Notes under the pieces: generated by a model
Seen by the model: only the letters and a program-made list of their open reading frames with translations
Told to the model about the DNA's origin: nothing
Databases searched by the model: none
Program-made: the position numbers and the translations under genes
IMG/VR virus record: IMGVR_UViG_2703718769_000001
Location: 1 to 4,919 of that record
Strand: one strand, 5' to 3'
Source of the DNA: a virus
Lineage: Duplodnaviria > Heunggongvirae > Uroviricota > Caudoviricetes
Length of the DNA: 4,919 bases
Part shown: piece after piece, positions 2,689-4,919 of the stretch
Numbering within the stretch: the first letter of the stretch is position 1
How the letters are laid out: the number at the start of each line of letters is the position of its first letter

Positions 2689-3162
2689 CTAGAACGGAAT
2701 ATCCGAATCGTCGAAGTTCATAGGTGGTTCGCTGTGATTCCCATGCTGCTGAGATTGCTGTCTTTGTTGCTGGCCGTTATTTCGCTGAGGTGAAGACTGT
2801 TCATTGCTTCCTTGCTTGCCACCAAGCATTTGCATGGTTCCACCAACGCCCACGATAACTTCGGTAGTGAACCGATCCTGTCCGCTTTGATCCTGCCATT
2901 TTCTTGTCCGCAATTTTCCTTCAAGATAAACCTCAGAGCCTTTTCGCAGATATTCGCTGGCAATTTCTGCCAGTTTCCCGCTCATTACCACACGGTGCCA
3001 CTCCGTCTGCTCCTTTTGCTCTCCAGTTTGCTTATCACGCCATTGTTCTGACGTAGCAACTGTAAGGTTTGCAAATGCCGTTCCTGATGGTGAATATCTG
3101 ATTTCTGGATCATGCCCAAGGCGACCAATAATGATCACCTTATTTACGCCTCTGCTTGCCAT
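2689..3162 (-). CDS. ssb: Single-stranded DNA-binding protein, phage-encoded (157 aa)
   Basis: Translation [23 protein letters not shown]...[52 protein letters not shown]...DDSDIPF shows an SSB OB-fold core, Gly/Gln-rich linker and acidic C-terminal tail ending DIPF. ATG immediately follows the TAA of the upstream gene. Confidence 0.9.
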
Positions 3163-3870
3163 TTATGCCGCCTGTTTTAGCTCGTTAACTCTGATGTTCA
3201 TTACCTGAACGCATTTAGCCTGCGCCTCCTCGTTTCCAGCCATTAATTGCCAGTCACGCTGATAACGCTCGATGAGTTTTTTCTTGTCAGTTTCTGTTGA
3301 CGCATAATCGCTGAAGTCTTTCAGGATTTGTTCGCAGTCAACCGATGGAGATTTCTGGTTGGTATTTTCTGGTGATGGTTTGTTATCTGATGCTGGGATT
3401 GCCCATCCCGGCAGCGATGGAGGGAGCCAGTAAAATCCTGTTCCATCCTTCAGTTTTGCCCTGTGCCACCCCTGCTTTTTATCGAGAGATGTTTGTGCGA
3501 AACCTTCCTCAAGGTTATACAGATACCGACCGATTCCCCACTGAACGGCAGCGCGCTTCATTGCACCGGAACGACCACCTTTGACGGCTTCTACCTGCGT
3601 GTTTTCAGCAGCATCCCATTTGGTTACCCATTCGGAATCAATCTTTATTGATATGCCGCATTCAACGCCGCCGTTGTTGGGAATATCGCGGTATTCATTG
3701 CGCCATCCTGCTTTGCCGCAAACATCGTCCAGGCGTTTCATGATTGCCCGGTTCGTGACATAAGCCAGCACCATAGCCCACACCTTGCCATCGCGTGTTT
3801 TACCGCTTTGCTGTATTCGCCATTCGATATCTTCAGGGCTGAATGGCTCATCGAATTTGTTCAAATCCAT
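3163..3870 (-). CDS. Rad52/Sak-type single-strand annealing protein, phage recombinase (235 aa)
   Basis: ATG at 3868-3870 with GAGGTG upstream. N-terminal FDEPFSPEDIEWRIQQ...AMVLAYVTNRAIMKRLDDVCGKAGWRNEY matches the pattern recalled for phage Rad52-family annealing proteins; sits directly upstream of ssb. Family assignment is from memory. Confidence 0.65.
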   Translation of the reverse strand: MDLNKFDEPFSPEDIEWRIQQSGKTRDGKVWAMVLAYVTNRAIMKRLDDVCGKAGWRNEYRDIPNNGGVECGISIKIDSEWVTKWDAAENTQVEAVKGGRSGAMKRAAVQWGIGRYLYNLEEGFAQTSLDKKQGWHRAKLKDGTGFYWLPPSLPGWAIPASDNKPSPENTNQKSPSVDCEQILKDFSDYASTETDKKKLIERYQRDWQLMAGNEEAQAKCVQVMNIRVNELKQAA

Positions 3871-3878
3871 AATTCACC

Positions 3879-4049
3879 TCAGAATGGACACGGCCCAAGG
3901 AAATAACGCTGATTTAATACTTCGACTCGGGACAAATTAAGGCATACCCGCATTCCTTCGCGGTCACCATTATGGCGATACCAGAGAGCTTTCTGAGTGT
4001 ACATGCGCCTCTGTAACTTGCTCTCCTTCACTGTGGTTGCAAGTGACAT
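3879..4049 (-). CDS. Small basic hypothetical protein (56 aa; MSLATTVKESKLQRRMYTQKALWYRHNGDREGMRVCLNLSRVEVLNQRYFLGPCPF) at the position of gam/arf in lambda/P22
   Basis: ATG at 4047-4049 with AAGGAG at 6-nt spacing (4056-4061); its TGA stop overlaps the Shine-Dalgarno of the annealing-protein gene. A competing 52-aa ORF (3970..4128) starts on an ATGA overlap with kil, so the true frame is unresolved. Confidence 0.35.
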   Translation of the reverse strand: MSLATTVKESKLQRRMYTQKALWYRHNGDREGMRVCLNLSRVEVLNQRYFLGPCPF

Positions 4050-4124
4050 GAATATCTCCTTCGTTACCGATTAATTCTTTCATCTGACGAATGAATTCTT
4101 CGTCTGACCAGTTATCTGTAAAAC

Positions 4125-4277
4125 TCATTTCCTGCGATACCACGGAAGGTTGATAGCTGATTTCATCGCTTTATTTGCTTCAAGCCACATTTTGGAATCA
4201 CCAATAAATCTGGCTATTACTGCTTTGTTCTGTGCAGCGCGAAGCATCTGGTGATTGATGTCTATTTCATTGCGCAT
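4125..4277 (-). CDS. kil: Kil-like host cell-division inhibitor peptide (50 aa)
   Basis: ATG at 4275-4277, overlapping the 3' end of the cIII homolog by 16 nt. Translation MRNEIDINHQMLRAAQNKAVIARFIGDSKMWLEANKAMKSAINLPWYRRK; the IA.FIGD.KM..EA core resembles lambda Kil as recalled, and the position right after cIII matches lambda. Confidence 0.55.
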   Translation of the reverse strand: MRNEIDINHQMLRAAQNKAVIARFIGDSKMWLEANKAMKSAINLPWYRRK

Positions 4278-4393
4278 AATAAGACCTCAACTCTTTTCCA
4301 TCCGTCACGTAATTTACGGGTGATTCGTTCAAGTAAAGATTCATTTAGTTGGAAGGCACCCATGCGAGCGCCTCCCGCGATTGCGTAAATCAT
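4262..4393 (-). CDS. cIII: cIII homolog, FtsH/HflB protease inhibitor (43 aa)
   Basis: ATG at 4391-4393 with AAGGAA 7 nt upstream. Translation MIYAIAGGARMGAFQLNESLLERITRKLRDGWKRVEVLLCAMK contains the ESLLERITRKLRDGWKR helix recalled from lambda cIII. Below the track's 60-aa cut-off. Confidence 0.8.
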   Translation of the reverse strand: MIYAIAGGARMGAFQLNESLLERITRKLRDGWKRVEVLLCAMK

Positions 4394-4417
4394 GGGTGGT
4401 TCCTTATATTGGTTTTA

Positions 4418-4919
4418 TTAGTAGGTTATTTTTGTTGCGAATACTTCGCCTTTTACGATGGCTGTTATGATATTTTTAGCAACATCTTCTGATGCACCAA
4501 CCTTGATAAGGTCAGCAAGTATTTTGTTATTTACTTCTTTCCGGTGAGCTTTATCCTTTGCTCTACGCTCTTCTTCGTCCTTGATTCTTTTTTCTTCTGC
4601 TATTCTGGCTTGCTCTTTTGCTTCAGCCTCGCGCCGGATTCGTTCAGCCTCCTCCTGTGCTTTTCGGCGTTCTGCTTCAATTGCCGCATGCTTTTCTCTT
4701 TCAGCTCGTTCTGCTGCCTCTTTTGCTTCGCGCTGTGCTCGTTGCTCGGCTTCAATGCGTTCACGCTCTGCACGTTCCGCTGCGGCCTTAGCTTCTGCTT
4801 CTCGCCTTGCTGCTGCTTCAATTTCGGCTTTTGCCTTTGCTTCGGCTTCTGCTCTGGCTTTCTCTTCAGCTTCTCTTTTTAAGCGTTCTTCATGTGAACC
4901 GCCCCGGGAATCCTGGAGA
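4418..4919 (-). CDS. Charged low-complexity coiled-coil protein, 5'-partial (start beyond window end); superficially TolA domain II-like
   Basis: Minus-strand frame is open from the window edge for 166 codons to tandem TAA TAA at 4415-4420. Translation ...EAEEKARAEAEAKAKAEIEAAARREAEAKAAAERAERERIEAEQRAQREAKEAAERAEREKHAAIEAERRKAQEEAERIRREAEAKEQARIAEEKRIKDEEERRAKDKAHRKEVNNKILADLIKVGASEDVAKNIITAIVKGEVFATKITY. Not in the ORF track because no start is in the window. Confidence 0.55.
   Translation of the reverse strand, partial: LQDSRGGSHEERLKREAEEKARAEAEAKAKAEIEAAARREAEAKAAAERAERERIEAEQRAQREAKEAAERAEREKHAAIEAERRKAQEEAERIRREAEAKEQARIAEEKRIKDEEERRAKDKAHRKEVNNKILADLIKVGASEDVAKNIITAIVKGEVFATKITY
4540..4890. 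repeat. Low-complexity pyrimidine-rich (plus strand) cryptic simple-sequence tract, GCTTC/GCTGC-type units, encoding the E/A/R/K repeat region
   Basis: Visible reiteration of gcttc, gctgc, ttctgc and cttttgc motifs; all three frames on both strands are low-complexity, which explains the spurious track ORFs 4544..4882(+) and 4600..4821(-). Confidence 0.6.
4895..4919. repeat. Right copy of terminal inverted repeat (tgaaccgccccgggaatcctggaga)
   Basis: Inverted partner of 2-26 (23/25). Lies inside the 5'-partial coiled-coil ORF. Confidence 0.8.

Follow-up and report, generated by a model that had tools for sequence, protein, structure and literature searches.

A short cIII and its overlap with kil as probable by-products of mosaicism in an Sf6-like early-left operon

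The two small overlapping genes at positions 4125-4393 of the phage DNA analysed here (4,919 nucleotides, referred to below as the window) are, in our opinion, an ordinary cIII and kil pair of an Sf6/IME10-type pL operon, in which a lambda-type cIII is mosaic-joined to an HK022-type kil, and kil is most likely translated from its own Shine-Dalgarno sequence. We hold this reading with high confidence. The identities of the genes, their anatomy, the position of the junction and the prevalence of the arrangement are established here.

Genes were called from the list of open reading frames (ORFs) and by direct reading of the sequence; all genes of interest lie on the minus strand. The cIII gene occupies 4262..4393 and encodes 43 amino acids (MIYAIAGGARMGAFQLNESLLERITRKLRDGWKRVEVLLCAMK; 4393..4262), followed by a TAG stop at 4264-4262, a call that draws on the ORF list, on Pfam and on identity with the annotated cIII proteins of Sf6, CUS-3 and mEp234. 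Its Shine-Dalgarno sequence AAGGA (4401..4405, minus strand) was read directly, 7 nt upstream of the ATG at 4393, and the string ATAAGGA upstream of cIII is invariant in a DNA alignment with Sf6, mEp234, phiSTEC801, lambda and P22. The kil gene (4125..4277, minus strand; ORF list and Pfam Lambda_Kil) encodes 50 amino acids (MRNEIDINHQMLRAAQNKAVIARFIGDSKMWLEANKAMKSAINLPWYRRK; 4277..4125) and ends in TGA. The Shine-Dalgarno sequence of kil, GAGG (4285..4288, minus strand), is embedded in codons E36-V37 of cIII, 7 nt upstream of the kil ATG, and is kept in 78 of 78 IMG/VR loci that were selected by their cIII and include downstream sequence. Because (4393-4277) mod 3 equals 2, cIII and kil are read in different frames. 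According to the ORF list they share 16 nt (ATGCGCAATGAAATAG; 4262..4277, minus strand), so that the out-of-frame overlap of this length reported in the initial annotation is confirmed.

Both products fall within established protein families. Pfam Lambda_CIII (PF02061) matches residues 2-36 of the cIII product with 56 bits against a cut-off of 25.7 (E = 4e-15), and Lambda_Kil (PF06301) matches Kil over the full model, 1-31, with 72.6 bits against a cut-off of 27.6 (E = 1.8e-20). Judged by these curated thresholds, the two ORFs should be regarded as real genes, chance ORFs being ruled out. The early-left operon position, with cIII directly upstream of kil, is shared with Sf6, CUS-3 and lambda. 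An NCBIfam scan of cIII and Kil from the window, lambda and HK022 returned no matches and is uninformative either way; evidently, PGAP names these peptides by a different route. The initial annotation had recognized, from the sequence alone, a cIII homologue with the central helix of lambda and a 50-aa kil homologue. Pfam supports both identifications, and the former is further strengthened by a 17-residue identity with lambda (see below). The ORF list and the alignment likewise agree with its description of a 43-aa cIII whose C-terminus is unlike that of lambda, and the length of 54 aa that it gave for lambda cIII is that of the lambda record.

The ORF list gives the minus-strand order TolA-like gene, cIII, kil, two small ORFs, erf (3870..3163) and ssb (3162..2689). 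The region belongs to the early-left operon of a P22-like, lambdoid phage or prophage of the Sf6/IME10 type. The kil stop codon and the start of the next small ORF form an ATGA junction (4125..4128, minus strand), which is apparent on reading, annotated in Sf6 and CUS-3, and conserved in IMG/VR; the ORF that begins there (4128..3970) is a homologue of Sf6 gp30. The two small ORFs after kil, 4128..3970 (52 aa) and 4049..3879 (56 aa), have 80 nt in common, read in different frames, and neither has a Pfam match. In Sf6 they are annotated as gp30 and gp29, while the calls of a 2025 mEp234 record differ (171 nt and 105 nt). The gene upstream of cIII (4420-4919, minus strand) is TolA-like, encodes a highly repetitive helix rich in Ala, Glu, Lys and Arg, is homologous to Sf6 gp33 and continues past the end of the window; its homologue in E. 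coli UTI89 is annotated as frameshifted. The plus-strand ORFs 4150..4254 and 4251..4388 are without support. Rfam had no match at E ≤ 1 anywhere in the window, and a scan of 3800-4919 for promoters and terminators yielded one promoter-like site and no terminators, which is not above shuffled sequences.

The pair has exact or nearly exact counterparts among described phages. Sf6 encodes an identical 43-aa cIII (gene 32) and a 50-aa Kil (gene 31) that agrees with that of the window at 49 of 50 residues. The 16-nt overlap and the neighbouring TolA-like, erf and ssb genes are common to both. The Sf6-type pair is also found in CUS-3, Sf101, mEp234, mEp213, HK544 and E. coli UTI89 (WP_000638547.1 and WP_001243355.1), and it differs from the pair in the window by one Kil substitution, A6D, Asp being the residue of the window. 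The records of Sf6, CUS-3 and mEp234, and that of E. coli UTI89 in RefSeq, carry annotations of the 43-aa cIII and the 50-aa kil with the 16-nt overlap between them; the RefSeq names of the UTI89 products are "protease FtsH-inhibitory lysogeny factor CIII" and "host cell division inhibitory peptide Kil". The cIII-kil pair of Sf6/HK022-like lambdoid phages is already known and already annotated. The wider window is a different mosaic, of which no more than 73% is covered by any one phage record.

Comparison of the sequences indicates that the short cIII tail and the 16-nt overlap are by-products of lambdoid mosaicism, by which a lambda-type cIII was joined to an HK022-type kil. The junction is located at 4294..4295 (minus strand): cIII is of the lambda type through K33 (AAA, 4297-4295), and the HK022-type kil module begins at 4294. 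When the DNA is aligned, a single mismatch separates the window, Sf6 and mEp234 from phiSTEC801-Stx1a through GGATGGAAA (codons G31-W32-K33), where lambda is similar too. Past this string, the window, Sf6 and mEp234 are unrelated to the DNA of lambda and phiSTEC801 until the conserved core of Kil is reached. The cIII tail, VEVLLCAMK (residues 35-43; 4265..4291, minus strand), is encoded by the kil ribosome-binding region together with the first five kil codons. The 5' end of kil, TTATGCGCAATGAAATAG, reads L-C-A-M-K-stop in the cIII frame, and any cIII allele recombined onto this module therefore inherits the ending.

This pattern can be followed in 80 IMG/VR loci chosen by the Kil type of the window, in 76 of which the upstream cIII-like ORF could be scored. 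The upstream cIII is of the HK022 type (44 aa) in about 46 of the 76 and of the window type (43 aa) in about 28; 2 loci carry a true lambda head, MQYAIAGWPVAGCPSESLLERITSKLRDGWKR, followed by VEVLLCAMK (41 aa). This split by type is approximate, a few ORFs having variant or untrimmed N-termini. All 76 cIII alleles stop at a common point and overlap kil by 16 nt, ending in LCAMK in 75 cases and in LCAMR in one. Since all of the scored alleles that precede this kil type end at the same point, the tail and the length of the overlap are properties of the kil module. Hybrids have arisen in both directions. Thus, phiSTEC801-Stx1a (locus L006, 701-871) carries a head and helix of the window type (residues 1-34) on a lambda tail and a lambda kil, which gives a 56-aa cIII and a 32-nt overlap, and in the IMG/VR record 2563366884_000001 a lambda-type head is followed by the tail VEVLLCAMK (41 aa). 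Such reciprocal hybrids point to a recurrent recombination joint right after codon K33/R34. As the joint falls just past the conserved cIII helix, the dispensable C-terminal tail would be whatever the neighbouring kil module encodes. In two of the Kil-selected loci, an HK022-type kil has no recognisable cIII upstream, and the upstream frame still ends in LCAMK-stop; these loci are possibly cIII deletions or replacements.

In lambda (cIII of 54 aa, kil of 47 aa), the pair occupies the same position in the pL operon, the genes overlap out of frame, and the kil Shine-Dalgarno sequence lies inside cIII, as in the window. However, the overlap is 32 nt in lambda and 16 in the window, the lambda cIII tail (LIDILNQPGVPKNGSNTYGYPD) is unlike that of the window, and the lambda cIII head has a 2-residue deletion by comparison. 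Furthermore, lambda Kil is without the 7-residue N-terminal extension of the window Kil and ends in RSSKSIH, and kil is followed by gam in lambda but by Sf6 gp30/gp29-like ORFs in the window. The HK022 kil, on the other hand, agrees with that of the window at 49 of 50 residues and shares the 16-nt overlap. The 44-aa cIII of HK022 (MMHFQLAGSGVMSAFYPHESELSRRVKQLIRAAKKQLEALCAMK; NC_002166) ends in ...EALCAMK-stop on the shared kil 5' sequence, and in HK022 as in the window, 26 residues separate the ES motif from the C-terminus. The head and helix of HK022 cIII are divergent, with 40% identity to the window cIII, whereas the window has the lambda-type helix; HK022 cIII was assigned to a separate class by Kobiler et al. 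(2007; PMC1838920).

It should be noted that an overlap of cIII with the downstream gene is general among lambdoid phages and not peculiar to the short variant. In lambda, kil overlaps both cIII and gam (Haeusser et al. 2014, PMC3961180). The c3 gene of P22, homologous to the window cIII with 72% identity over residues 1-39, encodes a C3 of 52 aa whose NQPGVP tail is lambda-like; the start of the downstream gene lies within the end of c3, the overlap being 20 nt, and the product of this P22 "kil" (62 aa) has no evident similarity to lambda Kil. The overlap measures 4 nt in Erwinia phage Midgardsormr38, and 16 nt is the length of the type represented by the window, Sf6 and HK022.

The conserved part of the window cIII corresponds to the part of lambda CIII on which activity is reported to depend. 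Residues 14-37 of lambda CIII form an amphipathic helix that is both essential and sufficient (Kobiler 2007, citing Kornitzer 1991; PMC1838920). Residues 16-39 of the window cIII span the equivalent of this region in full, 18 of the 24 residues being identical. The core of the amphipathic helix, the 17-residue segment ESLLERITRKLRDGWKR (codons 18-34; 4292..4342, minus strand), is fully identical to lambda cIII residues 16-32. The differences are concentrated in the last 6 residues of the essential region, 5 of which are unlike those of lambda (VEVLL in place of LIDIL), so the quantitative activity of this CIII could differ; among the five replaced residues, the heptad positions are still hydrophobic. 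The hydrophobic moment of the essential region is 0.65 in the window, compared with 0.74 in lambda and 0.60 in HK022, and 0.7% of shuffled sequences reach the value of the window. AlphaFold2, used here for single-sequence predictions of both cIII and Kil, models cIII as one helix of residues 3-42, with pLDDT above 90 over residues 21-40. We infer the biochemical activities of both peptides, and the mode of kil initiation, from lambda. By homology, the amphipathic helix of the 43-aa cIII (residues 16-39) would inhibit the host protease FtsH, and this inhibition would stabilise CII, as well as sigma32, and favour lysogeny. A limited literature search found no experimental test of the cIII allele of the window.

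The 5' part of the cIII coding region (codons 6-15) can form an 11-bp hairpin, GGGAGGCGCUC-GCAU-GGGUGCCUUCC (4351..4376, minus strand), whose fold has z = -2.41, with 2 of 200 shuffled sequences folding as well. The equivalent position also pairs in the cIII of lambda, P22, Midgardsormr38 and HK022, and 6 of the 11 pairs are changed on both sides, a count that comes from five sequences only. The hairpin at 4351-4376 is probably the counterpart of the lambda cIII mRNA structure known to control, with RNase III, the initiation of translation.

Identity between the window Kil and lambda Kil is 44%, and the FIGD motif is kept. Lambda Kil aligns from residue 8 of the window Kil, which makes the first 7 residues an extension relative to lambda. 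The AlphaFold2 model (mean pLDDT 86.7) consists of a helix of residues 2-25, a turn at G26-D27 and a second helix of residues 28-42. In lambda Kil, the corresponding elements are a helix of residues 4-18, a turn at G19-D20 and a helix of residues 21-38, this helix-turn-helix core being necessary (Naha 2025, PMC11762379); the predicted structure of the window Kil matches it. Nearly all homologues of lambda Kil carry a C-terminal RSK/RSSK motif (Naha 2025, PMC11762379), which is absent from the C-terminus of the window Kil; the latter has a basic end, ...INLPWYRRK, and the motif, though conserved, does not strictly define the family. By analogy with lambda, the 50-aa helix-turn-helix Kil would block assembly of the FtsZ ring in a ZipA-dependent manner, with filamentation as the outcome. 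No experimental test of a Kil of the HK022/Sf6 type was found in a limited literature search, and the HK629 Kil variant tested by Naha (2025; PMC11762379) is lambda-like. The HK629 record (JQ182735; locus L008, 708-947) annotates a 79-aa "Kil protein" ORF that crosses the whole cIII region in another frame and leaves cIII unannotated; this ORF looks like an annotation artefact, because the published work uses a 37-aa Kil. Residue 6 of the window Kil is Asp (GAC, base 4261) and Ala (GCC) in Sf6, CUS-3, HK022 and mEp234; Asp at this position occurs in none of 158 IMG/VR loci examined. The changed base, 4261, directly follows the cIII stop codon.

Several other accounts of the pair have to be weighed against the mosaic reading. 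The short cIII could be imagined to be a truncated, non-functional remnant of a gene of about 54 aa, or the product of a sequencing or assembly frameshift, given that it is 11 aa shorter than lambda cIII and is without the NQPGVP... tail common to lambda, P22 and Midgardsormr38. We find this scarcely credible, because the same 43-aa ORF recurs in independent phage isolates, in IMG/VR contigs and in hundreds of E. coli genomes. When the phage collection was searched with tblastn, 30 records proved to encode the protein over its full length of 43 aa with ≥99% identity. Relatives of cIII are encoded by 445 IMG/VR stretches, of which the best 80 show 100% identity without exception; 78 of these 80 include downstream sequence, and every one of the 78 has the 16-nt overlap. 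The IMG/VR loci were chosen by protein identity, one set to cIII and the other (80 loci) to Kil, and only changes that are synonymous in the frame of the query are therefore visible in them. At least 80% of the segment 4100-4420 is carried, at ≥95% identity where matched, by 482 of 5426 complete E. coli genomes. Moreover, reading on in another frame does not yield a lambda-like tail: there is a stop at 4267 in the third frame, and that of kil continues into Kil. Nor is a cIII of this size without parallel, HK022 cIII having 44 aa and ending alike, and the whole 24-residue region reported as sufficient for activity is still covered. Sequencing or assembly error as the cause of the short cIII is refuted by this recurrence and by the frame reading. 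In particular, an error or frameshift within 4262-4290, the region in which a longer cIII might have been concealed, is excluded by the identity of all 80 best IMG/VR loci, by the 30 phage records and by the 482 E. coli genomes. The description of cIII as a short variant in the initial annotation is correct as to its length, but the gene is not unusual, since Sf6, CUS-3, mEp234 and many E. coli prophages have it as their standard annotated allele. A related doubt concerns the start of kil. Were the internal ATG at M11 (4247) the true start, Kil would have 40 aa and would not overlap cIII at all, which would fit the beginning of the Pfam Kil match at residue 9 and the alignment of lambda Kil from residue 8. 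This is highly improbable, since the sequence upstream of 4247 (ATCAATCACCAG) contains no Shine-Dalgarno element, whereas 4277 has GAGG at 7 nt, and Ile takes the place of M11 in 4 of 78 loci, M1 being present in all 78. Starting at M11 would also lose the equivalent of lambda Kil residues 1-3 and cut into helix 1 of the AlphaFold2 model, which spans residues 2-25, and all annotations (Sf6, CUS-3, mEp234 and UTI89) use 4277.

The overlap also raises the question of translational coupling, which the initial annotation had taken the overlap to imply. If coupling were obligatory, kil would be translated only or mainly by ribosomes that have just left cIII, and the proportions of lysogeny factor and division inhibitor would be fixed. 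The geometry is suggestive: the cIII TAG (4264-4262) is 13 nt downstream of the kil ATG (4277) within a 16-nt overlap, an overlap is kept across lambdoid phages (16, 32, 20 and 4 nt), the next junction downstream is an ATGA overlap, and such tight packing is typical of coupled phage operons. However, kil has its own well-spaced GAGG, and its start region folds no better than shuffled sequences in the window (z = +0.62, with 147 of 200 shuffles as good), in lambda (+0.66) or in HK022 (+0.11). Without significant structure around the kil start, there is nothing for an upstream ribosome to open. Indirect evidence comes from the lambda strain CC4506, in which a point mutation destroys the cIII start codon and kil still filaments and kills, the filamentation being strong and kil-dependent (PMC3961180). 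The two IMG/VR loci that have the kil type of the window without a recognisable cIII upstream argue in the same direction. The GAGG, the start region without significant structure and the filamentation of CC4506 without a cIII start all speak against the implied coupling, and we consider its obligatory form unlikely. According to the reading we prefer, cIII and kil would be translated from one pL transcript, with kil initiating most likely on its own GAGG Shine-Dalgarno sequence; ribosomes that terminate cIII 13 nt further on may add some re-initiation, and facultative coupling of this kind is possible. One may also speculate that the LCAMK/LCAMR ending is itself selected, either by altering the turnover of CIII by FtsH or its association with the membrane, or through the fixed 13-nt distance from the kil start to the cIII stop, which might drive termination-reinitiation and set a fixed CIII:Kil ratio. 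The cIII helix would then be a preferred recombination joint at which lysogeny and division-inhibitor modules are swapped with both kept working. We regard such selection as very unlikely.

Taken as a mosaic of a lambda-type cIII and an HK022-type kil, the pair is a textbook case of lambdoid mosaicism with a recombination joint within a tiny gene, and it matters little beyond correct annotation. For annotation, a cIII of 43-44 aa should not be flagged as truncated, the overlap of cIII with kil is the norm in such phages, and the overlap alone is no basis for inferring translational coupling. The HK022/Sf6-type Kil, which is 44% identical to lambda Kil and is without RSK, is present in roughly 9% of complete E. 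coli genomes, and for this reason it could be of use as a naturally occurring variant in studies of FtsZ inhibition.
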